Assembly (NCBI GenBank): GCA_963736545.1
Contig: CAVTPA010000001.1
Coordinates: 1,665,660-1,729,659, forward strand
Origin: an uncultured Chloroflexia bacterium
GTDB lineage: Bacteria > Chloroflexota > Limnocylindria > Limnocylindrales > CSP1-4
Reading direction: 5' to 3'
DNA length: 64,000 nt
Part shown: piece by piece, positions 2,213-53,459 of the stretch
Position numbering within the stretch: position 1 is the stretch's first letter
Layout: each line of letters starts with the position of its first letter
The notes under the pieces: generated by a model
Told to the model about the DNA's origin: nothing
Database searches by the model: none
Seen by the model: only the letters and a program-made list of their open reading frames with translations
Program-made: the position numbers and the translations under genes

Positions 2213-3973
<1,761 letters not shown>

Positions 3974-4022
3974 CCGCAGCCGCGGCGAGCTCGCTGACCG
4001 CCCACGACCCGCGTCGCGATGC

Positions 4023-6854
4023 CTACTCGACCTCGAAGATCGCCGCCTCCAGCGCGCCGCCCATGCCGGGGTCCATGCCGTCCATCGGGTCGGCCGCAAG
4101 CGCCGTCCCCTCCGCGGGGACACACGAGAGCGCGTACGCGCCGGGCGTGTCGAGCGCGAAGCGGGCCGACTGCTCCTGGCCCGGGCGCGGGTTCAGCTCG
4201 ACCTTCGGAGCTCCCGGCAGCAGGCAGACGTACAGCGTGGCGGTGTCGTTCGTGAGGGTGACGAGCACCTGTTCGCCGGCCGCCACCCGGTAGGTGGGGG
4301 CGGGATCGCCCAGCGAGGAGGCGGCCACCGGCACCGGCACGGCGTTCGCGTCGAGCCAGCGGTTCACCCCGATGAAGCCCGCCGCGATCGCGACCGCGAT
4401 CCCCGCGATCACCGCGAGGTACGCCGCGTCCTTCACCCGCGTCCACGTCGCGTGGCGCGAGGCCGCCAGGACGGCTGCCGGCCGCGGGTCGTAGCCGCGA
4501 AGGCGGAGGGAGTTCGAGATGACCGACACCGACGAGAGGGCCATCGCCCCGGCGGCGAGCGCCGGGTTGAGCGTGATCCCGAAGGTCGGGTACAGGATCC
4601 CCATCGCGACCGGGATGAGGAGGACGTTGTAGGCGAAGGCCCAGAACAGGTTCTGGCGGATGACGGCCATCGTCCGCCGCGAGAGGGCGATCGCGGCGAC
4701 GACGCCGCGCGGATCGCCGCCGACGAGCGTGATGTCGGAGGCCTCGATGGCGACATCGGCGCCGGTCCCGATCGCCACGCCGAGATCGGCCGCGGCCAGC
4801 GCCGGTGCGTCGTTGATCCCGTCGCCGACCATGGCGACGACCTTGCCGCGGGCCCGCAGCTCCTCGACGACCGCCGCCTTGTCCCCGGGGAGCACCTGGG
4901 CCCGGACGCGCTCGACGGGGATCCCGACCTGGGCGGCGACGGACTCGGCGGTGGCCCGGTGGTCGCCGGTGACGAGCCAGGCTTCGATGCCGGCAGCTGC
5001 CAGCGCCCGCACGGCCTCGGCCGACTCCGCCTTGACGGGATCGGCGATCGCGAGCAGCCCGGCCGGCGCTCCGTCGACGGCGACGAAGACCGGGGTGTGG
5101 CCCTGCGCCGCATGGCCCTCGCCGGCGGCCCCCAGCTCGCCTAGGTCCACCCCGCGCTCGGCGAGGAAGCGGGCGCTGCCGACCAGGACGACACGGCCGT
5201 CGACGGTGGCCTCGGCGCCGCCGCCGGCCGTCGCCTCGAACGCGTCGCCGCCGGGGAACGCGAGGCCGCGGTCGCGTGCCGCCGCCAGGATCGCGCTCGC
5301 CAACGGGTGCTCCGAGCCGGCTTCGACGGCGGCGGCCAGGCGGAGGAGGTCGTCGGGGGCCAGCTCGCCGACGGGGACCACCTCGGCGACGGCCGGCTTG
5401 CCGCGCGTGAGCGTGCCCGTCTTGTCGAGGATCACCGCGGTCACGCGGTGGGCGTTCTCCAGGGCCTCGCCGCCGCGGACGAGGATCCCGGCCTCGGCGC
5501 CGCGCCCGGTGCCGACCATGATCGCGGTCGGCGTCGCGAGGCCCATCGCGCAGGGGCAGGCGATGATGACGACCGTGATGAAGGATGCGAGGGCGAGCGT
5601 GACCTTCGGCTCGGGCCCGAGGACGAACCAGAGCCCGAAGGTGAGCGCCGCGACGACGAGGACGATCGGCACGAAGATCCCGCTGATCCGGTCGGCCAGC
5701 CGCTGGATCGGGGCCTTGCTCCCCTGCGCGCGGCGGACCATCTCGACGATCTGGGCGAGGGCGGTCTCGCTCCCGACGCGGGTCGCCCGCATGACGAAGC
5801 TGCCGGTCGTGTTCAGGGTCGCCCCGATCACCTCGTCGCCCTTCGACTTCGTGACCGGCATCGCCTCGCCGGTGAGCATCGCCTCGTCGAGCGCGCTCGA
5901 GCCCTCGACGAGGACGCCGTCGACCGGCACCTTCTCGCCCGGGCGGACGCGCAGGAGGTCGCCCGGCTGGACCTGGTCGACCGGGATGTCGACGTCGCCG
6001 TCGGCCCGGACGACCCGGGCGGTCTTCGCCTGGAGCCCGACGAGCCGCCGGATCGCGCCGGTCGTGCGGCCCTTCGCCCGGCTTTCGAGCCACTTCCCGA
6101 GGAGGATGAGGCCGATGATGATCGTGGAGGAGTCGAAGTAGGTTTCGGCCGGGAGGCCGGCCCGCATGATCACCCCCGGGTACATCGTCACGAAGACCGA
6201 GTATCCCCAGGCCGCGCTCGTGCCGACGGCGACGAGCGTGCTCATGTTCGTGCCACCGTGGCGGGCCGTCCGCCAGGCCGCCTCGTAGAAGCGGCGCCCG
6301 GCCCAGAACTGGACGAACGTCGCCGGCCAGAGGGCCAGCCGGTTGACGTCGGCCATCGACAGCGGGAAGGGGCCGAACATCAGGACCATGATCCCGACCG
6401 CGACGCCGATGCTGACGGCCGACTGGATCCCGAGCTCGCGCTGCTCGCGGGCGCGCAGCCGCTCGGTCTCGTCGAGCTCCGAGTCGACGGCGGCGGTCCC
6501 GGTTGCGGCGGCCGCCGCTCGGCTGCCGCCGGCCGCCTGCGCCTCCGCCGCCTCGAGCGCGCCCGGGCGCACCTCGTAGCCCGCCTTCTCGATCGCCCCG
6601 ACGAGCTCGGCCCGCCCGACGGCGTCCGGCAGGAAGCGGATCGTGGCGACCTCGGTGGCGAGATTGACGTTCGCCTCGACGACGCCGTCCGTCTTGCGCA
6701 GGAATCGCTCGATCCGGTTGCTGCACGAGGCACACGTCATCCCGACGACCGGGAACGAGACCTCGGCCGGCTGCGCGGGGGACGCCGTGGCCGGGGCCGG
6801 CTCGACAGGCGGGCCCGGCTGGGCGAGTGGGGTGGTGGGGACGCTCGAGCTCAT
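4023..6854 (-). CDS. copA: copper-translocating P1B-type ATPase with an extra C-terminal TM helix and beta-sandwich (cupredoxin_1-like) domain
   Basis: N-terminal [18 protein letters not shown] motif ([13 protein letters not shown]), [15 protein letters not shown]. The last ~150 aa (nt 4023-4478) extend beyond the normal end of CopA. Confidence 0.9.
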
Positions 6855-7272: not shown

Positions 7273-7965
7273 ATGCCCGCCCGGGCGTCCGCCCGACGAT
7301 ACACTCCGGCGATGCCGAGCCTCGCCGGTCTGCCCGCCGCCGCGCACCGATCCGCCACGCAGCGATCCGCCGCGCCGGAGCCGGCCGCGGTCGCAGTGCT
7401 CGCGACGCCCGTCGGGCCCCTCCACGCCGCCGCGACCGGCGAGGGGATCATCGGGCTCGAGCTCCGGACCACCGACGAGGCCTTCGCCGCCTCGATCCGT
7501 GCACGCACGCGCCGCGCCATCGTGCCGGCGGCCGATCCCGCCGCGTCGCCCGCCGCCCGCGCCCACCTGGCCGAGCTCGAACGCGAGGTCGCCGAGCACC
7601 TGGCCGGGTCGCGCGACGAGTTCGCGGTGCCGGTCGTCCTCGAGGGCTGCTCGGAGTGGGATCGCCGGGTCCTCGAGGGAGTCCGGACGATCCCGCGCGG
7701 TGGGACCGCCTCGTACGGGGAGATCGCGCGGCGGATCGGTCGGCCGGGGGCCGCGCGCGCCGTCGGCGGCGCCGTCGGGCGCAACCCGGTCGGACTCCTC
7801 GTCCCCTGCCACCGGGTGATCGCCGGCGATGGGACACTCGGCGGCTACGGCGGCAGCTGGTTCGGCAGCCGTGAGGAGTTGCTGGGCTTGAAGGAGCGGC
7901 TGCTCGAGCTCGAGGGCGTGGTGCCGCCGCCCCGTTCGGCGCCCCGGTCGGTCGGTCGGCCGTGA
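7273..7965 (+). CDS. ogt: methylated-DNA--protein-cysteine methyltransferase
   Basis: Active-site PCHRVI and GGYGG motifs. The stop overlaps the next start (GTGA at 7962-7965). The exact start is uncertain (ATG 7273 or 7312). Confidence 0.85.
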   Translation: MPARASARRYTPAMPSLAGLPAAAHRSATQRSAAPEPAAVAVLATPVGPLHAAATGEGIIGLELRTTDEAFAASIRARTRRAIVPAADPAASPAARAHLAELEREVAEHLAGSRDEFAVPVVLEGCSEWDRRVLEGVRTIPRGGTASYGEIARRIGRPGAARAVGGAVGRNPVGLLVPCHRVIAGDGTLGGYGGSWFGSREELLGLKERLLELEGVVPPPRSAPRSVGRP

Positions 7966-8558
7966 CGATCCTGCGGGCCTACCGGCAGCTGCTCGGCAAC
8001 GGGCCGCTGACCCGTCTCCTCGTCGGCGAGTTCGTCTCGTCGATCGGCGACTGGCTCTACCTCGTGGCGATCCTCATCCTGGTCTACCAGGTCACCGAGG
8101 ACCCCTTCGTGCTCGGGCTCGTCGGTGCTGCCCGCGTCCTCCCCTACCTCTTCCTGTCGATCCCGGCCGGCATCGTCGCGGACCGGTTCGACCGCCGCCT
8201 CGTCCTCCTCTCGACCGACGTCGCCCGCGGGATCCTCATGCTCGTCATTGCCGCGGTGGTCTTCGTCGACGGGCCGATCTGGATCGTGATCGCGCTGGCG
8301 ATCGGCGGGACCTGCTTCGCCACGTTCTTCGGGCCGGCGATCGGCGCCTATCTGCCGACGCTCGTCGCCGACGAGGAGCAGCTGGGGCCGGCCAACAGCG
8401 CCTGGTCGACGCTCGACAACCTCGCCTTCATGATCGGGCCGGCGGTGGCCGGCATCCTCATCGCCACCGGCGGGCTCGTCATTGCCTTCCTCCTCAACGC
8501 GGCGAGCTTCGCCGTCATCGCGGTCGTCCTCTGGGGGCTTCCTCGCAGCCGGCCGGCC

Positions 8559-8593
8559 GACGCGCGACGGCGGCAGACGCGCCGACGGCGGCC
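8559..8593 (+). repeat. 17 + 18 nt tandem duplication (GACGCG-CGACGGCGGCA / GACGCGCCGACGGCGGCC); the missing C causes the first frame change
   Basis: Read directly. Restoring one C gives an in-frame DAPTAA-DAPTAA-PSDAPTT loop. Confidence 0.8.
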
Positions 8594-9499
8594 CCGAGCG
8601 ACGCGCCGACGACGAACCCGACCCACGAGCCCGCAACGGCGATCGAGCCACCGACGCCGGCGGGGGCGCGGGCAGGTATCCCCACGGCCGTGCTCCTGCC
8701 GGTCGTCGGGCTCGGGATCGTCGACGTCGTGGGGGCGATGGCCGGCGGCGGCCTCTCGGTCCTCACCGTCGTCATCGCGACGACCGAGCTCGGCGGTGGC
8801 GAGGAGGCAACCGGCTTCCTCAACGCCGGGATCGGGCTCGGCGGCTTCATCGGGGCGATCATCGCCGGGGCGCTCGTGCTGCGGCCCAGCCTCGTCCCGG
8901 TGCTCGTCGCCGGGTCGGTGGTCTACGGGGCCGGGCTCGCCGCGCTGGGCTACGCGCCGGCGCTCGGGATCGCGTTCCTGGCGATCGCCGTGGCGGCGGC
9001 GGGGAGCCTGCTCGTCGAGGTGACGAGCACGACGGTCTTCCAACGCGCCGTACCGGACGTGATCCGCGGCCGCGCGATCGGCATCCTCGGGACGATCTCG
9101 ATGGCCGCCTTCGCCGGCGGGTCGTTCCTCCTCCCGGTCGCGAGCGGCTATGTCGGCGTCGGTCCGGTGCTGCTGGCGACCGGGATCGCGATCGCCGCCG
9201 CCGGCGTCGTCGGGGCGATGCTGGCGGCCCCGGCGGCGCGTCGGAGCACGGGCTCGACGGCCGACGTCCGCGTCACGCGCCTCGCAGGCCTGCCGCTCTT
9301 CGCCGGCGTCCCGGCCGCCACGCTGGAGGCGATCGCGGTGAAGCTGGCACCGGTGGCGGTCGCGGCGGGCGCGGTCGTGATCCGCCAGGGCGAACCGGCC
9401 GACCGCTTCTACATCATCGAGGAGGGCCGGTTCGAGGTGACGCAGGTGCCCGAAGCGGGAGCGGAGGCGGCACCCGGCGCCGGCACGGCCGCGGCGGCC

Positions 9500-9555
9500 G
9501 GCCGTCCCGAGGCGGCCAGGCCGTCCCGAGGCGCCAGGCCGTCCCGAGGCGGCCC
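9500..9555 (+). repeat. 19 + 18 + 19 nt tandem repeat (GGCCGTCCCGAGGCG(G)CCA) encoding GRPEA(A/P); an extra G causes the second frame change
   Basis: Read directly. Unit 1 has GGCGGCCA where unit 2 has GGCGCCA. Confidence 0.8.
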
Positions 9556-10111
9556 TGCACCTCCGGACGATGGGCCCGGGCGAGGTCTTCGGCGAGATCG
9601 GCCTCCTCCGCTCGGTCCCCCGGACGGCGACTGTCACGGCCGGCACGGCCGGTCGGCTTCTCGCGCTGAACGGATCGGACTTCCTGGAGCTCGTCAACGC
9701 CGGCCCGCTCGTGCGACCACGCCTCATCGACCTCCACCGCGGCGGGTCCGGCGCCGGGTACTGATGGCCCGGACCGGCGGCTCCGGGGCACCCGCTCCGG
9801 GGCACCCGGCCCGGGGAGCAAGCTCGCCGTTTATCAGTCGCACGACTACGAGGCGCCCTCCAGGGGATAGCGGCGCGGCTCGAACGGCGGCGGACCTCGC
9901 GCTTCGCCATGATCGACCCGGGCGCGGAGCACGGGCGGAGCGAGACGCACCCATCCCGGAGTCGCATCCCGCTCTCCGACGGCGGAGAGAACGGTCGCGA
10001 TGGCCGATCTGTCTGGTCGCTAGTCATGGGGCTGATATCGACGCACGTTTGTCCCGGCCGGCGCCACCCAGCTGGGAGCACAGCCGCTCGGCCGGTGGGA
10101 GGCGCCGGGTA

Positions 10112-10200
10112 CGACCGGCCCGAGCCGCGCGGCGACCGACCGGCCCGAGCCGCGCGGCGACCGAGCGGCCCGAGCCGCGCGGCGACCGAGCGGCCCGCTC
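10112..10200. repeat. 25-bp tandem repeat x3.5 (CGA(C/G)CGGCCCGAGCCGCGCGGCGAC); each unit contains the palindrome GCCGCGCGGC
   Basis: Read directly. It ends 7 nt from the S8 peptidase stop codon, in the convergent intergenic region. Confidence 0.85.
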
Positions 10201-10207
10201 GGCTCCC

Positions 10208-11041
10208 CTACCGCGCCGGCGGCTCCGAGGCCGTCGCCGCGAGGATCGCCTTCACCTCGAACGGCGAGGCGTGCGGGTGAGCGGCCCGGATGAGCGCCGC
10301 GTAGCCGGCGACGTGGGGTGCCGCGAACGAGTTCCCCGTCGCGACGATCCGTCCGCCGTCGCGCCAGGCGACGTTCACGTCGACGCCGTAGGCCCCGAAC
10401 TCCACGGGCGGGTCCGGGTTGTAGAACCAGGCGTCGGGGTCGGCGAGGTCGTGCGCGGCGACCGAGACGACGGAGGCGAACAGCGACGGGTAGCTGTTCC
10501 CGGGGACGTTGTTGGCGGCGCAGACGAGGAGGACGTTGGCGAAGTAGGCCCGGTCGGCGAGATCGTGGAAGAGCCCGAAGAGCGCGTCGCTCTTCGACGA
10601 CAGGCTGAGGTTGACGACGCTCGCCCCCTGCTCGATCGCCCAGTCGAGGCCGGCCGCGAAGACGATCCCTTTGCCGCGGTTGTCGGGGCCGAGCACGCGC
10701 ACCGACACGATGTCGGCCTCCGGAGCGATCGCGTGGATGATGCCCGCGCAGGCCGTGCCATGCCCGACGACGTCGAGGCCGTCCGGGTCGTCGCCGATGA
10801 CGGGGTCGTCGGCCGGGTCGGGGGCCAGCTCCACCCGGACGCTCCGAATGAGCTTGCCGCCCACGGCCGGGTGGTCGCGCTCCACGCCCGAGTCGATGAC
10901 GGCGACCGTGACGCCGCGCCCGGCCGTGGCGCCGAGCGCCCACTCCCGGGTGACGCCGCCGAACGGCGAGCTGCGGCGCAGGTCGGCGAGACGATCCCCG
11001 ACGAACGGCTCGCTCCAGGCCGGAAGCAGGTCCCCGCTCAT
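10208..11041 (-). CDS. S8 (subtilisin-family) serine peptidase with no signal peptide
   Basis: Catalytic triad contexts VAVIDSGV (Asp), GHGTACAG (His) and GNSFAAPHVAG (Ser). ATGA overlap with the upstream GAF gene. Confidence 0.85.
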   Translation of the reverse strand: MSGDLLPAWSEPFVGDRLADLRRSSPFGGVTREWALGATAGRGVTVAVIDSGVERDHPAVGGKLIRSVRVELAPDPADDPVIGDDPDGLDVVGHGTACAGIIHAIAPEADIVSVRVLGPDNRGKGIVFAAGLDWAIEQGASVVNLSLSSKSDALFGLFHDLADRAYFANVLLVCAANNVPGNSYPSLFASVVSVAAHDLADPDAWFYNPDPPVEFGAYGVDVNVAWRDGGRIVATGNSFAAPHVAGYAALIRAAHPHASPFEVKAILAATASEPPAR

Positions 11042-11865
11042 CGCTCCGCTGCGCGGCGCCGGAGACCTCGGGGTCCGCGGGCGCCGGCACCGCTCGCCCG
11101 CGGTCCGCCGTCGCGCTCGGCCTGGCGGACGAGCACCGCGAGAAGCGCGGTCACGAGCTCAACCTGCTCGGGCGCAGCCCGGCGGAGCGCGGCCACCTGC
11201 TCCACGAGCGGCCAGAGCGGGTCGTCCGGACCCCCCACGTCGGCGACGGCTGCCTCGACGAGCGCGTCCACGCCGGCGGCCGGCGCGTCGTCGCCGGCGA
11301 GCGCCCCGAGGACGGCGCCGAGGAGCCCGGCCACGTCGCGCTCGACCCGGCTGGCCCGGATCGCAACCGACGCCTGGCGGGCGAAGACCCCCGCCAGCTC
11401 GACGTCGCGGATCGAGAAGGTCGCCTCGCTGCGCTTGTCGAGCACCTCGAGGACACCGATCGTGCCCCGGTCGTCGACGAGCGGGACCGCGACGATCGAA
11501 CGCGGGACGTACTGCGTCTGCTCGGCGAAGCTCCGCCCGAAGCGCGGGTCGCGGGCGACGTCGGAGATCGCGAGCGCCTGGCCGGTCGAGAACACGTAGC
11601 CGACGAGGCCGCGGTCGGGCGGGATCTCGAGGCCGACGACGCCCTGCCCCTGGGCGCCGGCGGCGACGCGGAAGACGAGGACGTTGCGCGCCGCGTCGAA
11701 GAGGGCGAGCGAGGCTGCCTCGGCCTCGAACAGGCTGACCGCGGCCGCCACGATCGAGCGGAGGACCGCCTCCGTTCCGCCGAGCTCGAGCCGGCGGGCG
11801 ATCTCGGCCCGGCGACCGATCGCGGCGAGCGCTTCGCGGGCCGCCGCGTCCCGCTCGGCCGTCAC
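11038..11865 (-). CDS. GAF domain protein with a helical C-terminal extension
   Basis: GAF-like core LVGYVFSTGQALAISDVARDPRF...VAVPLVDDRGTIGVLEVLDK. GTGA overlap with the upstream crp-family gene. Confidence 0.8.
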   Translation of the reverse strand: MTAERDAAAREALAAIGRRAEIARRLELGGTEAVLRSIVAAAVSLFEAEAASLALFDAARNVLVFRVAAGAQGQGVVGLEIPPDRGLVGYVFSTGQALAISDVARDPRFGRSFAEQTQYVPRSIVAVPLVDDRGTIGVLEVLDKRSEATFSIRDVELAGVFARQASVAIRASRVERDVAGLLGAVLGALAGDDAPAAGVDALVEAAVADVGGPDDPLWPLVEQVAALRRAAPEQVELVTALLAVLVRQAERDGGPRASGAGARGPRGLRRRAAER

Positions 11866-12566
11866 CGCTCGGCCGCGCGCTCGAGGCGCTCGAGGTCGGG
11901 GACGACGAGCGTGTCCTTCTCGATGCGGATGAGCCCCTCGGCAGCGAAGTCGGCGAGGAGGCGGTTCACCGTCTGGCGCGTCCCGCCGATCATCGCCGCC
12001 AGCTCCGACTGCGAGAACGGCCAGGAAAGGCGGACCTCGCCCTGCGCAGCAGGGTCGGCGTCGCGGGCCATCCGGACGATCCGCTGCGCCAGCCGGCCGG
12101 GCAGGTTGAGGAAGTGGAGCTCGCCGACGTGGTGCGTGAGGCGGCGCAGCTCTCCGACGACGCCGGCGAAGAGTGCCCGCCGGAGGTTCGGGTCCTCGTC
12201 GACGAGACGGTCGAAGGCCTCGCGACGGAGAACGAGCGCCTCCGTCGGCTCGAGGGCGACCGCTGTCGCCGAATGCTCCTCGCCGTCGAGGAGGGCGAGC
12301 TCGCCGAAGAAGTCGCCGGGCCCGAGCGTCGCGATGATCGCCCCCTCCTCGCCCTCGGGGTCCGGGAGGACGATCTTGACGGCGCCGCTCTCGATCACGT
12401 AGAGCGAGTCGCCGGGGTCCCCCTGGTGGAAGATCGTCTCGTTCCGACGGTAGCGCCGTCCGCGCAGCGAGCCCAGGCAGCGGGCGAGCGAGTCGTCGTC
12501 GACGCGTGAAAAGAGCATGCAGCGCCTGAGCGCCGCCGCGGCGTCAGCCCGTTGATCGGCCGCCAC
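11862..12566 (-). CDS. Crp/Fnr-family transcriptional regulator
   Basis: cNMP-binding fold (IFHQGDPGDSLYVIESGAVKI, FGELALL) plus a C-terminal HTH (RQTVNRLLADFAAEGLI). AGGAGGG lies 5 nt upstream of GTG 12566. Confidence 0.85.
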   Translation of the reverse strand: MAADQRADAAAALRRCMLFSRVDDDSLARCLGSLRGRRYRRNETIFHQGDPGDSLYVIESGAVKIVLPDPEGEEGAIIATLGPGDFFGELALLDGEEHSATAVALEPTEALVLRREAFDRLVDEDPNLRRALFAGVVGELRRLTHHVGELHFLNLPGRLAQRIVRMARDADPAAQGEVRLSWPFSQSELAAMIGGTRQTVNRLLADFAAEGLIRIEKDTLVVPDLERLERAAER

Positions 12567-12726: not shown

Positions 12727-13428
12727 TCAGCCCTTGCGGGGATCCGACTTCTTCGTGTCGTTGACCAGGTTGCTCCGGGAGGTGGCCCGACGGATGTCGG
12801 CCTCCTTCGCCCTGGCCAGGTCACGGGCCAGCACCGGGTTCATCGTCCCGATCATGTGGCCCTCGACGTCGTCCTCGGTGGCGCGCGAGCTGATGACGCC
12901 CTCGGGCGCCTTCGAGCTGATCACGCCTTCCGGAGCCTTCGAGCTGATGACGCCTTCCGGCGCCCTCGAGCTGATGACGTGGCCCTCGACGTCGTCCTCG
13001 GTGGCGCGCGAGCTGATGACGCCCTCGGGCGCCTTCGAGCTGATCACGCCTTCCGGAGCCTTCGAGCTGATGACGCCTTCCGGCGCCCTCGAGCTGATGA
13101 CGTGGCCCTCGACGTCGTCCTCGGTGGCGCGCGAGCTGATGACGCCCTCGGGCGCCTTCGAGCTGATCACGCCTTCCGGAGCCTTCGAGCTGATGACGCC
13201 TTCCGGCGCCCTCGAGCTGATGACGTGGCCCTCGACGTCGTCCTCGGTGGCGCGCGAGCTGATGACGCCCTCGGGCGCCTTCGAGCTGATCACGCCGTCG
13301 GGACCCTTCGAGCTGATGACGCCTTCCGGCGCCTTCGCCAGCCGATGGCCCTCGACGTCGTCCTCGATCGCCTTCGGGTCATACCGCTGGAACACCCCTT
13401 CGGTGTCCATCTTCTTGTTCGTCGCCAT
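12727..13428 (-). CDS. hypothetical tandem-repeat protein (41-aa units built from 9-aa APEGVISS[KR] sub-repeats and EDDVEGH motifs)
   Basis: AGGAGG lies 8 nt upstream of ATG 13428. Third-position G+C is near 100 % on this strand. No signal peptide or TM helix. Confidence 0.6.
   Translation of the reverse strand: MATNKKMDTEGVFQRYDPKAIEDDVEGHRLAKAPEGVISSKGPDGVISSKAPEGVISSRATEDDVEGHVISSRAPEGVISSKAPEGVISSKAPEGVISSRATEDDVEGHVISSRAPEGVISSKAPEGVISSKAPEGVISSRATEDDVEGHVISSRAPEGVISSKAPEGVISSKAPEGVISSRATEDDVEGHMIGTMNPVLARDLARAKEADIRRATSRSNLVNDTKKSDPRKG
12856..13347. repeat. 123-bp tandem repeat: three identical copies (12856, 12979, 13102) plus one 120-bp diverged copy (13225)
   Basis: Read directly. 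Each unit contains three 27-nt sub-repeats (GAGCTGAT[GC]ACGCC...). Confidence 0.95.
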
Positions 13429-13626: not shown

Positions 13627-14034
13627 TCAGGGTCGCTGAACGGGCCGGATCGGGAAGACCCCGATGATCGTGGGGCTCACCGGGTCGAGCAGCAGCTCGT
13701 AGCCGACGTCGCCCTGGCGAATGAGCTCGCCGAGAAGCCCGCCCTCGCGAGTCGGCAGCCCGACGAACAGGCGCTTGCCGTGCACGTCGACGGGCGAGAC
13801 GTCGTCATCGGCGCCATTCAGGCCGAACCGACGCCGCAGCTCGTGGAGCGGCACGTAGGGGCGGCTCTTGATGAACCGTCGCAGCTGCGCCTGCGTACAG
13901 ACCGGTTGGGCATCGCTCCCGTCGGCGCCGCCGGCTCGCGCCGGGTCGGTCGCCGGGGCGGTCGGCGGCAGTGGGCGGGCGCCTTCATCCCCCCCGATCG
14001 GGCGGGACTCTGGCTGCAGGGCGGGCTCGGTCAT
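13627..14034 (-). CDS. hypothetical protein (disordered N-terminus and a compact C-terminal domain, possibly winged-helix-like)
   Basis: ATG 14034. The C-terminal 90 aa (QLRRFIKSRPYVPLHELRRRFGL...) have clean codon bias. The fold assignment is a guess. Confidence 0.4.
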   Translation of the reverse strand: MTEPALQPESRPIGGDEGARPLPPTAPATDPARAGGADGSDAQPVCTQAQLRRFIKSRPYVPLHELRRRFGLNGADDDVSPVDVHGKRLFVGLPTREGGLLGELIRQGDVGYELLLDPVSPTIIGVFPIRPVQRP

Positions 14035-14251
14035 GGATGGCAGCTCCGCGGCCCATGGCCGCGCACGTTCGAGGTCGGATGGCGGGCCGGGGACCCGCCG
14101 GTTGCGATCGATCATACCCCCGGCCCAGCGACGGTGCCGCCCGGGCGTTCGACTGCCGGGAGGCCGGCTTCCGGGTGCCCACGCACGACGCCGCCGCCCC
14201 GGAGGGCGGCGGCGCTGGAGCGCGTCGGGAGGGGCGGCGACGAGCCGGATG

Positions 14252-14808: not shown

Positions 14809-15297
14809 CTAGCCCCGGCGATCGGGCGGCCAGGTCCCCATCACCTGGCGGAGAATCGCGAACTCGCCGACGTGGTACGCGGTGTGGTCGGCGACGAGGC
14901 GGATCTCGCGGAGGAGGGTGTGCCCCGGCGTGCCGGGGATCGGAGCGAGGAGGTCCGTTGCCGGGTCGGCCACGATGGCGCGGAGTGCCTCCTGGTCTGC
15001 CCGGATCCCCTCCAGCGTGGCGGAGAGGTCGGCCGCCGTCGCCGTCGCGTCGGGCGCGGGCCAGTACTCCTCGGGCCAGCTCGGCTCCAGGTACGCTCGG
15101 TTCGTGACGTACTCGAGGATGTCGTGCTGGGCGATCCGGATGTGCTCGAGCAGGTGCCACGGGGTGTACGAGACGTTCGGCGGGCGCATGTTGATGGCGT
15201 TCTCCGGGAAGGCGGCGACTGCCTCCTCGAGCGGCATGTGGGCGCCGTTGCCTGCCAGCAGCTCGAGGACCTGTTCGCGAAGGTGATCGACGGTCAT
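14809..15297 (-). CDS. DinB-family (DinB_2-like) four-helix-bundle protein
   Basis: 162 aa with His-containing helices (WHLLEHIRIAQHD, ADHTAYHVGE). ATGA overlap with the upstream cyclase gene. Confidence 0.75.
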   Translation of the reverse strand: MTVDHLREQVLELLAGNGAHMPLEEAVAAFPENAINMRPPNVSYTPWHLLEHIRIAQHDILEYVTNRAYLEPSWPEEYWPAPDATATAADLSATLEGIRADQEALRAIVADPATDLLAPIPGTPGHTLLREIRLVADHTAYHVGEFAILRQVMGTWPPDRRG

Positions 15298-18200
15298 CGC
15301 GGGTGTACCTCCAGGAAGAGCGTCGCGCCGCACGATCGAAGGATCTCCGACCCGCGCGCGGCGAGCGTATCCCCGTCGTCGCCCAGGCGCCGTTCGACGG
15401 CCGCGAGGTCGAGCAGGCACCGGCCGAGATCCAGCCGCCGGCCGAGCGTCTCGAGCCGCACGGCGGCGTCCGCGAGGAGGGGCCGCGCCCGCGCGGGGTC
15501 GGGCTCGAGCAGGCCGTCGGCCCAGGCGAGGAACGCGCGCGGCGGGACGTTCGACGAGGCGAGCAGGGCGAGACGATCGCGCGCGAGATGAGCCTCTGCC
15601 GGCCGACCGGCCCGGACCGAGGCGGCCACGCACTCGAAGAGCAGGACCTGGCCGAACCAGACCGAGAGCCGCTCGTCGCGCACGCCGCGGTGCGCCGCCG
15701 CAAGGATCGCCGCAGCCTCGTCGTCGCGGCCCTCGCCCATCGCGACGTAGCCGTCGACGATCCCCGTCACCTCCTCCACGTACGGGACGGACGTGATGTC
15801 GACGTGCTCGAGGAGAGCCCGGTACTCGCCGATCTGCTTGCGTGCAGGTTGCACGTGGCCGCGCACGCAGGCTGCGATCGCCGCAACGGCCCAGGTCCAG
15901 GCCGCGTCGCGGGAGTCGCCGGAGGTGTCGGCGGCCTCGCGGGCCGCGAGCAGCGGGGCGTCGACCTCGTCGAGCCGGCCGATCTCCCGCAGCAGGTACC
16001 CCAGGTTGAGCTGCGCGCGCGCCAGCTTGACGAGATTCCCTGCCCGCCCGGCGACGTCGATCGCCTCGCGGTTCAGGGCCTCGGCGCGCGTGTAGTCGCC
16101 GCTCACCTCGACGGCGGCCGAGAGCACCGCCTCGAGAGCGTCGAGCAGCAACGCCAGATCGCCGGCCGCCCGCGCGATCGCGAGCGCCTCGTCGAAGAGG
16201 CGGATGGTCTCGTCGCCGCGCCGCCTGGCGTGGAGCGTCCAGCCCAGCGAGATCGCCGCCCGCGCCTCGGCGGGCCGGTCGCCGACGCGGCCCGCGATCG
16301 CCGTCGCGCGCCGCAGGAGCGGCTCGGCCCGGTCGAGGTCGCCGCGTTCGAGGTAATGGCGGCCGAGCACGTAGAGGGCGAACCCGAGGTCGGCGCCATC
16401 GCCGAGCGGCTCGAGCCGGGCGATCGCCCGCTTCGCCAGGCGCCGCGTCTCCGGGGCGCCCTCCTCCCAGGTGAGCGCGCTCGCGATCGAGGCCTCGACC
16501 CGCCCGACGTCCGCCTCCTGACCTGTCCGCTCGTACCGCAGGAGCGCCTCGTTCCAGGCACCGACGACGTCGGGGACCGTGGCGATCCCGTCGGACGCCA
16601 TCGCGTAGGACTCCCAGAGCGGCGCGAGCTCGGCGTCGTCCCGCCCGATCCGCGCACCGAGGTCGAGGGCCGATCGCAGCCAGCCGACTGCCTCGCGCTG
16701 CTGCCAGAGGCGTCGCGCCCGCTCCCCGGCCGTCCGCGTCCAGCGGAAGGCCTCTTGCTCGATCGCCGGCCGCTGACCGTTCGCTTCGCCGAGGTCGTCG
16801 AGCCATCGGAGTGCCTGGAGGTGGTGCGTCGCGAGCAGCTCGGCGATCTCGTCGCGGCGCTCCCCTACCTGGACCTCGGCCCAATGCGCGGTGACCACGT
16901 GCTTCGACGCCCGGAGCGCCTTCGGGAGCGAATCGTAGGCGACGTCCCGGACGAGGATGTGGTGGAACGCGAACTCGGCCTCGCCCGACAGGCGGGACTC
17001 GGCGTGGCGGGTGACGAGCCCCATCGTTTCGAGGACCCCGAGCACCGCCGGGATGCGGTCTCGGCCGTCCGCGCGAAGCTCCTCGAGCGCCCCGAGCCAG
17101 AACGTCCGGCCGACGACCGAGGCGTCCTGGAGGAGCGCCTTCTCCTCGGCCGTCAGCGCGTCGAGGCGGGCCGCAAGGAGACCCTGGATCGTGCGCGGCA
17201 CCTCGAGCGTCTCGATCGGCGCGTCGAGCTCGAGGCGCCCTTCCTCCCCATGCCGGACGACACCGCGGTCGACGAGCATCCGCACGATCTCCTCGCAATA
17301 GAGCGGGTTGCCGGCGCCGGCATCGAGGACGAGCCGGGACAGCGCGGAGGGCAGGTGAGCGGCCATGAGGTCGCGCACCAGCTCGTCCGCGTCCGCCTCG
17401 CTGAGTGGATCGAGACGTACGACCGTCGCCGGCCGACGTCGCCGGCCCCCGCCGGCGCCCCACGTCGCCCGTCGCTCGAGAAGGTCCGGCCGCGCGAGCG
17501 CGAGCAGGAGGATCGGTGCCGTCGCCCATGCCGCGACGTGCTCCAGGAAGTCGAGGAGGCCGTCGTCTCCCCAGTGAGCGTCCTCGACGACGAGCACCAG
17601 GGGCGCGGCCGTCGCCATCCGTTCCAGGATCCGGCGCCAGGCGTCGAAGAGATCCTCCCGGCCGAAGCGCTGCTCGCCGCCGGCCCCGACGAGCGCGAGG
17701 AGGTGCGGCAGGAGGTGCGAGCCGCCGAAGAGCCGGTGGAGGGCGTCGCGCGCGCGCAGCTCGACGATCGCCGGTGCGTCGTCGTCCCGCACCCCGCACT
17801 CCGCCTTCATCACCTCCGCGAGGGCCGAGTACGGGACGTTCCCGTACGCGACGCAGCGGCCCCGGCGGATGCTCACCCGACCGTCGCCGCGCAAGAGGCC
17901 TCCCAGGAACTCGTGGGCGAGGCGCGACTTGCCGATCCCCGCCGGACCGACGACCGTCACGAGCTGCGGCCGTCCGCTCGTCCGGGCGTCGGCGAGCGCC
18001 CCCGCCAGGATTGACAGCTCCGCGTCGCGGCCGACGAGGTGCGCCTGCAACCGCAGCGGAGTGCGCACTCCCCGGACCGTGGGGCGAGCCCGGACGGCGC
18101 GCCACGCCGGAACCGGAGCAGCCTTGCCCCGGAGGTCCAGCGGCGGCAGCGCGTCGTACTCGAACAGCTCCGCGGTCGCCGCGTGTGCCGAGGGGCCGAC

Positions 18201-18779
18201 GACGACCTGCCCCGGCCCGGCCGCCTGCTCCAGGCGGGCGGCCGTGTTGACCGCGTCCCCGGTCAGCATCCGGTGCCGCGCCCCTCCGACGCGGTCGACG
18301 TCCACGAGGATGGCGCCGGTCTCGATCCCGATCCGGAGTGCGAGCGGCGGCCGGCCCTCGCCCTCGAGCTCGCGGGCGAGGGCGCCGATCTCGGCCTGGA
18401 CGGCGAGCGCCGAGCGGATCGCCCGCTCGGGGTCGTCCTCGTGGGCGACGGGCACCCCGAAGACGGCGAGGATCGCGTCGCCGATGAACTTCTCCAGGAG
18501 CCCGCCGTGGCGCTCGATCTCGCGCTCCGCGCGCTCGAAGGCCCGCTCGAAGAGAGCCTGGACGACCTCCGGGTCCTCCCGCTCGGCGAGCGCCGTCGAG
18601 CCCGCGACGTCGGCAAACAGGGCGGTGGCGAGCTTGCGCTCCTTGCGGCTCGGGAGCCCGGGGCCGGTCGGCGCAACCGGGGCCGACCCCGACACCGCAC
18701 CGAGCGCGGCCCCGCAGGAGGCGCAGAAGCGTGCCGACTCCGGCGCCTCGATACCGCACGATCCGCAGGGGCGCGTCAC
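15294..18779 (-). CDS. zinc-ribbon + class III adenylate/guanylate cyclase + AAA/STAND ATPase + TPR multidomain protein
   Basis: N-terminal CGSCG..CASCG. Cyclase motifs ATALFADVAGST, FIGDAILAVFG, GDAVNTAARLE. Walker A GPAGIGKS. Long TPR-like C-terminus with no LuxR HTH. Confidence 0.9.
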   Translation of the reverse strand: MTRPCGSCGIEAPESARFCASCGAALGAVSGSAPVAPTGPGLPSRKERKLATALFADVAGSTALAEREDPEVVQALFERAFERAEREIERHGGLLEKFIGDAILAVFGVPVAHEDDPERAIRSALAVQAEIGALARELEGEGRPPLALRIGIETGAILVDVDRVGGARHRMLTGDAVNTAARLEQAAGPGQVVVGPSAHAATAELFEYDALPPLDLRGKAAPVPAWRAVRARPTVRGVRTPLRLQAHLVGRDAELSILAGALADARTSGRPQLVTVVGPAGIGKSRLAHEFLGGLLRGDGRVSIRRGRCVAYGNVPYSALAEVMKAECGVRDDDAPAIVELRARDALHRLFGGSHLLPHLLALVGAGGEQRFGREDLFDAWRRILERMATAAPLVLVVEDAHWGDDGLLDFLEHVAAWATAPILLLALARPDLLERRATWGAGGGRRRRPATVVRLDPLSEADADELVRDLMAAHLPSALSRLVLDAGAGNPLYCEEIVRMLVDRGVVRHGEEGRLELDAPIETLEVPRTIQGLLAARLDALTAEEKALLQDASVVGRTFWLGALEELRADGRDRIPAVLGVLETMGLVTRHAESRLSGEAEFAFHHILVRDVAYDSLPKALRASKHVVTAHWAEVQVGERRDEIAELLATHHLQALRWLDDLGEANGQRPAIEQEAFRWTRTAGERARRLWQQREAVGWLRSALDLGARIGRDDAELAPLWESYAMASDGIATVPDVVGAWNEALLRYERTGQEADVGRVEASIASALTWEEGAPETRRLAKRAIARLEPLGDGADLGFALYVLGRHYLERGDLDRAEPLLRRATAIAGRVGDRPAEARAAISLGWTLHARRRGDETIRLFDEALAIARAAGDLALLLDALEAVLSAAVEVSGDYTRAEALNREAIDVAGRAGNLVKLARAQLNLGYLLREIGRLDEVDAPLLAAREAADTSGDSRDAAWTWAVAAIAACVRGHVQPARKQIGEYRALLEHVDITSVPYVEEVTGIVDGYVAMGEGRDDEAAAILAAAHRGVRDERLSVWFGQVLLFECVAASVRAGRPAEAHLARDRLALLASSNVPPRAFLAWADGLLEPDPARARPLLADAAVRLETLGRRLDLGRCLLDLAAVERRLGDDGDTLAARGSEILRSCGATLFLEVHPR

Positions 18780-19811: not shown

Positions 19812-20021
19812 CTCGACCTCCTCCGGCGCAACGGCGCCGGTGCAACAGGTCGCGGGTCGGTCTCGCCAGTGGCTCGACGCGGTCCCGGCGGCCGGGTTCG
19901 GGCCGCGCATCATCGCCTCCCGTATGGCGCGAACCCTAGGCGCGCCCGAGCCGTGTGGCGAGAGTCGAACGGCCCCCAGCGCCGCCACCGGGGCCGAGGC
20001 CCATGGACGAGTCGTCCCGCC

Positions 20022-53384: not shown

Positions 53385-53459
53385 TGGTTGCGGGGAAGGG
53401 ATTCGAACCCTTGACCTTTGGGTTATGAGCCCAACGAGCTGCCGCTGCTCCACCCCGCA
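53385..53459 (-). tRNA. initiator tRNA-Met (CAT anticodon, encoded CCA)
   Basis: Cloverleaf folded by hand: acceptor TGCGGGG/CCCCGCA, D stem GAGC/GCTC (A11:U24), anticodon stem TTGGG/CCCAA with three G:C pairs next to the loop CTCATAA, T arm AAGGG-TTCGAAT-CCCTT, ACCA end. Confidence 0.9.

Follow-up and report, generated by a model that had tools for sequence, protein, structure and literature searches.

In yeast, alpha-factor is encoded as tandem short peptides set between acidic spacers, and Kex2, a kexin of the S8 (subtilase) family, cuts at a fixed motif, the last copy ending the open reading frame (ORF). Among bacteria, the intracellular subtilisin proteases (ISPs) of Bacillus are cytoplasmic, possess neither a signal peptide nor an I9 prodomain, and carry an extension of ∼18 residues in which a conserved Pro-aromatic motif, LIPY/F, blocks the active site (PMC6220982). 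Myxococcus PopC is a signal-less subtilisin-like protease that is co-transcribed with a cytoplasmic restraining partner, PopD, and its proteolysis yields an intercellular signal (PMC6434023). In the actinobacterial zincin/FxSxx-COOH systems a small, fast-diverging precursor accompanies a dedicated peptidase and sometimes a CRP-like regulator of the type that binds cyclic nucleotide monophosphates (cNMPs), with a signal or toxin peptide as the proposed product (Kaur et al. 2020, PMC7159879, section 24). Here we describe a locus that shares individual features with each of these systems. It lies in a 64-kb stretch of contig CAVTPA010000001.1 (positions 1,665,660 to 1,729,659) from an uncultured Chloroflexia bacterium, called the window below, and it comprises genes for a Crp/Fnr regulator, a tandem-repeat precursor-like protein, a GAF-domain protein, an S8 peptidase and a major facilitator superfamily (MFS) transporter with a C-terminal cNMP-binding domain. 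These five genes very probably constitute a conserved module that acts as one functional unit. With the repeat protein and the transporter included, the module looks like a dedicated system for peptide processing and export rather than a general intracellular protease.

The core of the locus consists of three minus-strand genes, which a sequence-only reading of this stretch had described as joined by start/stop overlaps. This description is accurate: the Crp/Fnr regulator (12566..11862, GTG start, 234 residues) overlaps the GAF protein gene (11865..11038, GTG start, 275 residues) by the four nucleotides GTGA at the junction gagcGGTGAcgg, and the GAF gene overlaps the S8 peptidase gene (11041..10208, ATG start, 277 residues) by the four nucleotides ATGA at the junction gagcgATGAgcg. 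Third-position G+C (GC3) in the three ORFs is 0.92-0.96, the same as in neighbouring real genes, and we therefore regard all three as genuine genes. The window as a whole has a G+C content of ∼74%, its closest protein relatives are labelled as Chloroflexota or Candidatus Limnocylindrales metagenome-assembled genomes (MAGs), and its sequence was present in DNA metagenomes only. A scan for promoters and terminators gave no result above shuffled expectation.

Synteny was surveyed by scanning one genome per GTDB species with the S8 peptidase as anchor, which produced 80 loci with S8 identities of 51-88% (individual loci carry L numbers below). They come from Limnocylindria and Anaerolineae (Chloroflexota), from Actinomycetota, and from one Acidobacteriota MAG and one Spirochaetaceae MAG. 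In every locus with upstream DNA (78/78) the GAF gene lies directly 5′ of the S8 gene on the same strand and ends at or just before the S8 start; a four-nucleotide NTGA overlap between the two is found in 40 of 66 loci, and most of the others are within 32 nucleotides. The trio is consequently syntenic in other genomes, whose failure to show such synteny would have refuted the sequence-only reading, and because the arrangement recurs in every related locus examined it is far beyond chance. Four proteins (P0250, P0253, P0275 and P0283) are outright fusions of GAF and S8, whose GAF part scores 104-136 bits against a hidden Markov model (HMM) built solely from the GAF proteins of the module. GAF and S8 are an obligate, translationally coupled pair that is sometimes fused. 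The earlier reading is thus supported in part. Less well supported, or incomplete, is its treatment of the trio as a self-contained, small-molecule-gated protease: the trio is real and syntenic, but a repeat gene just upstream (13428..12727) and an MFS-cNMP transporter gene downstream had been overlooked.

When the ORFs of 81 loci were clustered all against all, the S8 peptidase was recovered in 76 loci, the GAF protein in 71, the Crp regulator in 62 and the MFS-cNMP transporter in 59. Several further clusters that appeared conserved (c12, c15, c17, c18, c19 and others) were discarded, as they are antisense or off-frame ORFs of the transporter gene. In Limnocylindria the surroundings of the module are conserved and of a housekeeping kind, including an M24 peptidase, a 2-oxoacid oxidoreductase, MGMT and fatty-acid synthesis genes, with no phage or mobile genes adjoining the module.

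The repeat gene lies on the minus strand directly upstream of Crp and encodes a protein of 233 residues that starts MATNKK. Its ATG at 13428 is preceded at a distance of 8 nucleotides by GGAGGA, and GC3 falls from 0.92 within the gene to 0.66 in the upstream extension of the ORF, which we therefore consider non-coding. Tandem Repeats Finder (TRF) reports a period of 123 nucleotides (41 residues) with 4.2 copies and 97% matches, within which a sub-repeat of 27 nucleotides, or nine residues (APEGVISSK), is nested. Five copies of EDDVEGH punctuate the protein, which reads ...AIEDDVEGH / RLAKAPEGVISSKGPDGVISSKAPEGVISSRATEDDVEGH / VISSRAPEGVISSKAPEGVISSKAPEGVISSRATEDDVEGH ... MIGTMNPVLARDLARAKEADIRR..., the last element being the beginning of a basic C-terminal tail of 42 residues that follows the final motif and is conserved in 12 Limnocylindria loci. 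The repeat proteins belong to no Pfam or NCBIfam family, giving only spurious low-complexity matches (TubC_N, OorD), and a homologue search returned 28 proteins, all of them annotated as hypothetical.

Related loci encode repeat proteins of very different sequence in which each unit closes with the same kind of motif, [DE][DE][VT][EA][GA][HQN]. For example, the unit is GFKARSAVEPDGHIQRKAVEDDVEGH in L002, GHKVKAVEDEDVEGH in L015, LRAPGRLVEDEDVEGH in a Nocardioides MAG (L077), GHHHKNFADAEDDDTEGH in L051, SMTTRPTSRPTARPSAAADEVEAH in L047 and AMNVGAISKGKTPIHTPAEDEAAAH in the Acidobacteriota MAG (L059); units are mostly 13-48 residues long. A logo of 174 distinct motif contexts is acidic at positions -7 to -4, with Val, Thr or Ala at -3, Glu at -2, Gly or Ala at -1 and His at 0, followed by a small residue at +1 and Met, Arg, Leu or Phe at +2; the search pattern imposed positions -4 to 0, so that -7 to -5 and +1/+2 are the free ones. 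Two or more core motifs are found in 64 ORFs from 50 of the 81 loci, against none in reversed DNA, 0-1 in three codon shuffles and none in the rest of the 64-kb window. Variant motifs are DDTEGQ (ten copies in L034, and also in L040 and L042), DDTAGQ (seven copies in L036), DVEGN (L078), DEVKLQ (17 copies in L055) and DEVIAH, and with these included a motif-repeat gene is present in ∼60 of the 81 loci. In L036, L042, L057 and L014 the array of the repeat gene is broken up by shifts of frame or stretches of N, probably owing to assembly trouble in tandem repeats, and counts of repeat genes are therefore underestimates. The substitution of His by Gln or Asn in several lineages also led us to drop the idea of a copper site, in which a cut before E-G-H would have exposed an N-terminal X-X-His.

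The association can also be recovered from the opposite direction. Metagenome contigs were scanned at the DNA level for two motifs, DVEGH followed by DDVEGH, separated by 9-19 codons; the other genes played no part in this search, and the contigs were scored with HMMs made from the genome loci. Although most of these contigs are just 1-3 kb long, 56 of the 80 loci found have S8, GAF, Crp or MFS-cNMP on the same contig. Since the locus search and the motif-only search agree, the link between motif gene and module holds in both directions. In some loci all five genes follow each other on one strand: L138 has MFS (1-1737), Crp (1658-2443), the repeat gene (2593-2931), GAF (2950-3723) and S8 (3647-4567), while L077 has Crp, the repeat gene, MFS, GAF and S8 in that order.

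Several properties of the repeat proteins point to a processed precursor. A comparison of the window with L004 gives 86-89% identity for Crp, GAF and S8 and 37% for the repeat protein. Actinobacterial repeat ORFs stop 4-6 residues past the last motif, and the basic peptide on which they end is the same as the one that follows each internal motif (LRAPGR, IRHRDR, KMGRK, AKQR or GHKVK); such a pattern would arise if the product were the peptide behind the motif, with the acidic stretch serving as a spacer or recognition sequence. The Limnocylindria repeat genes located upstream of Crp encode a conserved basic C-terminal tail of 37-48 residues, and those of Anaerolineae and Acidobacteriota, located between Crp and GAF, have a conserved leader (LKKLSALRATLxxDE) and C-terminus (FDPxxEEY). 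The repeat protein is of low complexity, is predicted to be soluble and is devoid of any hydrophobic segment, so that any export would need a dedicated carrier.

A candidate carrier is encoded on the plus strand at 7962..9764, convergent with S8, by the gene for an MFS_3-type transporter with a C-terminal cNMP-binding domain. Intact orthologues match Pfam MFS_3, MFS_1 and cNMP_binding (the cluster member has 566 residues), and the Pfam name of MFS_3 is "transmembrane secretion effector". The cNMP domain of the family has a canonical PRTATV cassette, at which the window reads GEVFGEIGLLRSVPRTATV. In the window the gene reads in three frames when compared by tblastn with the intact 578-residue orthologue of L002, namely 7962-8558, 8690-9445 and 9558-9755 (frames 1, 3 and 1), and it is either a pseudogene or affected by long-read or assembly indel errors. 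Such errors are plausible because L001, another assembly of this organism with 99.8% identity across 20.8 kb, differs from the window by 8 gap openings; the short-read contigs placed on the gene span neither frame junction. The intergenic region between the convergent S8 and MFS genes contains a 25-nucleotide tandem repeat of 3.4 copies (10112..10197; TRF, 98% matches). At this position many relatives have a second small, convergent motif gene ending ...DVEGHFGxLRSPxSRGE, and no motif ORF was found there in the window.

The S8 peptidase has a single Pfam match, to Peptidase_S8 (PF00082; residues 41-271, E-value 1.1e-30, 107.4 bits against a gathering threshold of 21.8). Asp50, His94 and Ser238, in the motifs DSG, HGT and GxSxA, together with the oxyanion residue Asn178, place it within the family; the three catalytic motifs are kept in 73-75 of 76 family members, and judged from these motifs the triad is intact. 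The sequence-only reading described the enzyme as lacking a signal peptide and advised a check for a pro-peptide or inhibitor region. Hydropathy supports the former: the maximum over 11-residue Kyte-Doolittle windows ahead of the first core beta-strand is below 1.3 (family median 0.65), a hydrophobic N-terminal segment is absent from the window S8 and 73 relatives, and the window S8 has no hydrophobic C-terminus either. As regards the latter, no prodomain was found, PF00082 being the sole Pfam match and Inhibitor_I9 giving none. The features of a secreted subtilase, a signal peptide plus an I9 or equivalent prodomain, are accordingly missing, and by sequence the S8 peptidase is cytoplasmic.

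The catalytic Asp is reached after just 49 residues, which exceeds the count in mature subtilisin BPN' by 18. Position 35 of the family profile aligns to BPN' residue 17, which defines an 18-residue N-terminal extension. This extension holds Pro7-Ala8-Trp9 (PAW), of which Pro7 is invariant in a 21-sequence alignment reaching down to 36% identity; PAW occurs in 64 of 73 loci, and in 52 of these its distance to the catalytic Asp is 43 residues. By analogy with ISPs, the PAW extension may be an active-site lid. The AlphaFold2 (AF2) model of S8 has a subtilisin fold with a mean confidence score (pLDDT) of 76.5, a pTM of 0.83 and a Foldseek probability of 1.00, and the Foldseek search returned generic subtilisins only, with no pointer to a special function. 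The family profile scores best against 266-residue engineered BPN' chains, among them 1gnv, which is titled as a calcium-independent mutant, and lower against wild-type 275-residue chains; this preference suggests that the calcium-A loop is missing, which would suit a cytoplasmic enzyme.

Relatives of the S8 peptidase number in the thousands, the top 120 clusters being 74-100% identical, and an exhaustive search of representatives gave 237 proteins at E≤1e-30. Within this compact clade, other fusions join S8 to a Ser/Thr kinase (P0254, P0256), to a LuxR-type helix-turn-helix (HTH) domain (P0284), to an ABC exporter with membrane and ATPase domains (P0282) and to a DUF1611 P-loop protein (P0386). 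Such varied fusions suggest that the compact subtilase is used more broadly as a signalling or processing domain. A separate observation concerns specificity: in loci whose motif ends in Gln, S8 has ASN[YH]PG where the others have AANNVPG, beside the oxyanion Asn178. From motif alignment this segment presumably corresponds to BPN' residues 154-156 in the wall of the S1 pocket, and the covariation of the last motif residue with this wall is suggestive.

In its relatives the GAF protein presents the same picture as S8. Pfam recognises a GAF domain at residues 32-169 (6.4e-21, with GAF_2 and GAF_3 matches also), which is followed by a tail of ∼100 residues. Among solved structures the nearest by sequence is a "metal dependent phosphohydrolase" that contains a GAF domain (4mcw, 3.2e-19), followed by PDE2A GAF-B (3.8e-13), a GAF of a cyanobacterial adenylate cyclase (1ykd, 1.3e-11) and the GAFs of PDE5, PDE10 and PDE6. 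In sequence the domain thus comes nearest to GAFs that bind cNMPs, PDE2A GAF-B and CyaB2 being examples. The tail, which the sequence-only reading had called helical, is predicted to form helices at 152-193, 196-207, 218-228 and 232-251, albeit in a poor model (mean pLDDT 50), and both its length and its pattern (...L..LA..F.EL..LG..ER......L....Y.RR.R) are conserved across phyla from Limnocylindria to Actinomycetota. In the GAF-S8 fusions it is shortened or lost, and in P0275 and P0283 PAW follows the GAF domain within a few residues. A role of the tail in docking GAF onto S8, which the sequence-only reading had suggested as one possibility, would fit, because it is conserved across phyla yet shortened or lost when the two proteins are fused.

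The Crp protein has both the N-terminal beta-barrel and the C-terminal HTH of the Crp/Fnr family (cNMP_binding 3.3e-30, HTH_Crp_2 3.2e-17). Its phosphate-binding cassette, FGELALLDGEEHSATA (residues 76-91; 12292-12342, minus strand), has His in place of the cassette Arg and departs from the pattern of cAMP-binding Crp proteins such as CRP and GlxR, G-E-x-A-L-x(n)-R-[ST]-A. We take the conserved Arg to be the contact to the cyclic phosphate, equivalent to Arg82 of E. coli CRP. Of 51 matched segments of module-linked Crp genes, 27 have Arg at this position, 18 have His and 6 have Ala; all 18 His cassettes come from Limnocylindria-type loci, and the close relatives L002, L008 and L009 have Arg.

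Altogether the module has three conserved sensor-type domains: the cNMP domains of Crp and the transporter, and the GAF domain. A likely local source of cAMP, which we count as an associated rather than a core gene, is encoded at 15294..18779 on the minus strand; this protein of 1161 residues combines an N-terminal zinc ribbon with a class III nucleotidyl cyclase domain, AAA_16 and TPR (Pfam Guanylate_cyc, AAA_16, TPR_12). In ∼22 of the 81 loci, the window included, a class III cyclase is encoded no more than 6 kb from the module. Anaerolineae loci have a receiver-cyclase and a cNMP-binding PP2C phosphatase instead. By association, gating of the protease by cNMP through the GAF domain is plausible.

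The explanation that we favour has S8 cleaving the repeat protein behind the motif and the products being exported; built from gene associations and sequence features, it is a proposal to which we would give an even chance. GAF and S8 would be the two subunits of a cytoplasmic processing protease dedicated to the repeat protein, with the helical tail docking GAF on S8 and the PAW extension as a possible ISP-like lid. The motif would be read on the P side, with Val or Thr at P4, Gly or Ala at P2 and His, Gln or Asn at P1, and the cut would fall directly after it. A hydrophobic P4, a small P2 and a fixed P1 are the usual way in which subtilases read their substrates. Cutting would free several copies of a short, species-specific peptide and, in the precursor class found in the window, also the conserved basic C-terminal peptide of ∼42 residues; the acidic stretch would serve as spacer or recognition sequence, and the MFS_3-type transporter would export the products. 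A cNMP, probably cAMP from the nearby class III cyclases, might license the system at up to three levels, with Crp acting on transcription, GAF on proteolysis and the cNMP domain of the transporter on export. On a broader level, the module may serve cAMP-licensed peptide communication, with transcription, excision and export of a multi-copy species-specific peptide in a bacterial version of the alpha-factor/Kex2 logic that is widespread in Chloroflexota and Actinomycetota, although this remains a tentative proposal that we place on the doubtful side.

A number of observations weigh against this explanation. Cleavage of the repeat protein by S8, the position of the cut and the export are all steps that we infer, and in about 20 of the 81 loci, of which eight are truncated contigs, a repeat gene could not be recognised within 6 kb. 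A conserved modifying enzyme is absent, and the products would accordingly be plain peptides. On the sensing side, the NKFDE signature is kept only in part in the GAF domain (VLDK-x6-F-x3-D-x-E), and the AF2 model of the GAF protein, made from a 30-sequence alignment, was too poor to analyse (its mean pLDDT being as given above) and was not used for a fold search. The covariation of motif and S1 pocket involves just one or two lineages, and phylogeny is a confounding factor. Finally, the window Crp has His for the cassette Arg and the window transporter gene is frameshifted, on account of which the module in this organism may be partly decayed or differently regulated.

The same synteny would be expected if the repeat protein were itself the functional molecule, for instance a disordered acidic or His-rich buffer, a chaperone-like protein or a regulator, and if GAF-S8 destroyed it on a cNMP signal with no export taking place, the transporter being a neighbour under its own regulation. 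The low complexity and predicted solubility of the repeat proteins and the absence of conserved modifying enzymes suit such a degradation switch. However, hypervariable spacers around a strictly conserved motif, in ORFs that end after a "core" peptide, are the signature of a processed multi-copy precursor. The cNMP-domain MFS_3 transporter, moreover, accompanies the module in 59 of 81 loci and in several of them, such as L077 and L138, belongs to one operon with it; we consider the switch unlikely. A similarly limited weight, just short of this, attaches to the view that GAF is not a ligand sensor at all, having replaced the I9 prodomain as a foldase or inhibitor in the manner of PopD with PopC (PMC6434023), so that the protease is activated when GAF is removed. 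Strict one-to-one translational coupling, an S8 without a prodomain and the loss of the tail in fusions speak for this role, which is compatible with precursor processing, whereas the GAF domain has stayed close to ligand-binding cNMP GAFs and is surrounded by two other conserved cNMP sensors and by cyclases.

Less probable again is what the sequence-only reading had in mind, a self-contained general intracellular protease gated by a small molecule, concerned with bulk turnover or quality control like the ISPs and accompanied by a Crp regulator, to which the repeat gene is incidental. Neither signal peptide nor prodomain is present, the short extension recalls the ISP propeptide (PMC6220982), and the GAF domain comes closest to cNMP-binding GAFs. 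The association with the repeat gene is nevertheless strong in both directions and across phyla, and an S8 that is highly conserved, at 74-90% identity across 120 clusters, and always found with one specific GAF argues for a specific job. A role in anti-phage defence or conflict, with a protease effector switched on by a nucleotide signal to give abortive infection, is very improbable, and we rejected it as the main explanation. S8 does match the PADLOC "subtilase" (1.8e-20), and the cNMP domain of Crp resembles the sensor of Pycsar effectors (∼1e-10), but these matches cover generic domains only and amount to no full set of system components, the GAF protein has no PADLOC match, and the Limnocylindria module lies in its conserved housekeeping context rather than in a variable island, with no phage or mobile genes adjacent. 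The preferred explanation, a dedicated protease that processes a multi-copy precursor for export, is the one retained below.

Some neighbouring features are recorded here for completeness. Just upstream of the repeat gene, at 13627-14040 on the minus strand, is a gene for a small protein with no Pfam match whose C-terminal part reads ...LRRFIKSRPYVPLHELRRRF...VGYELLLDPVSP...; it forms cluster c25, which recurs at this position in 11 Limnocylindria loci. At 19846-19929 on the minus strand, a c-di-GMP-II-GAG riboswitch aptamer (Rfam RF03169; 70.7 bits, gathering threshold 40) lies upstream of another small protein without a Pfam match, followed on the same strand by a SnoaL-like gene and the cyclase-AAA-TPR gene. 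In the Anaerolineae and Acidobacteriota loci L046, L047, L055, L056 and L059, Crp is preceded, ∼1.3-3.6 kb away on the Crp side of the module, by genes for a receiver-domain adenylate cyclase and for a PP2C (SpoIIE-type) phosphatase with cNMP binding, and several of the same loci have an M3 oligoendopeptidase F-like gene downstream of S8. The sole tRNA gene of the window is a tRNA-Met (CAT) at 53385-53459 on the minus strand.

If the preferred explanation is true, the module would add a new and readily recognised family of ribosomal peptide precursors together with its processing protease and a cNMP-controlled export route, in phyla where peptide signalling is almost unexplored (Chloroflexota, soil Actinomycetota and Acidobacteriota). 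It would furthermore contain the first subtilase with an obligate GAF-domain partner, and with it a new coupling of a second messenger to proteolysis. On a practical level, genome mining could start from either the motif [DE][DE][VT][EA][GA][HQN] or the pair of GAF and S8 genes, both of which are simple to search for.

The sequence-only reading knew of no characterised system with this composition, and our literature searches agree: full-text searches on the motif, on the gene combination and on tandem-repeat precursors with subtilases found no description of the module. The S8 peptidase also stays below the cut-offs of the defined subtilase families to which it was compared. It scores 120.4 bits against the mycosin model TIGR03921 (cut-off 278.75), with no ESX genes nearby and no hydrophobic C-terminus that could be an anchor; 104.6 bits against the QhpE model NF049966 (cut-off 165), with neither qhpC nor the radical-SAM gene qhpD nearby; and 30.8 bits against the PatA/PatG model TIGR03895 (cut-off 421), being a single-domain protein of 277 residues with no heterocyclase conserved nearby. 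A cluster for a ribosomally synthesised and post-translationally modified peptide would need a conserved modifying enzyme beside its precursor; here a precursor-like gene is present and the conserved partners are only Crp, GAF, S8 and MFS-cNMP.

Among the systems that invite comparison, the cyanobactin proteases PatA/PatG and their precursor PatE are alike in having an S8 enzyme without a classical secretion route, a multi-core precursor and a conserved site in front of hypervariable cores. The PatA site, G(L/V)E(A/P)S, is similar to [VT]E[GA]H at P4-P1 of the module. Unlike cyanobactin clusters, the module has no macrocyclase or DUF domain, no heterocyclase and no modification genes, and it does have a GAF partner, Crp and a cNMP-domain MFS transporter. 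The S8 peptidase of the module resembles the ISPs in its 18-residue extension, which bears a conserved PAW in place of LIPY/F; ISPs differ in this motif and in having neither a GAF partner nor a dedicated repeat substrate, and the ISP chain 7y6m scores below BPN' against the family profile. PopC is a secreted enzyme that cuts a surface protein, in a system with no repeat precursor and no cNMP domains. In the zincin/FxSxx-COOH systems the peptidase is a zincin metallopeptidase, the product is a single C-terminal peptide, and a radical-SAM enzyme and an AP-ATPase take part, with no GAF, S8 or MFS-cNMP.

A parallel in logic is alpha-factor and Kex2, with which the module shares repeats, acidic spacers and a subtilase. 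Kex2 is eukaryotic, acts in the secretory pathway and recognises a dibasic site, whereas the module is bacterial and cytoplasmic and would have an acidic-x-G-H site. None of the systems compared here has the component set of the module. We accordingly rate as new the GAF-partnered cytoplasmic subtilase, the cNMP-domain MFS transporter and the putative precursor family, and as already known the logic of a protease-processed multi-copy precursor combined with a dedicated exporter.

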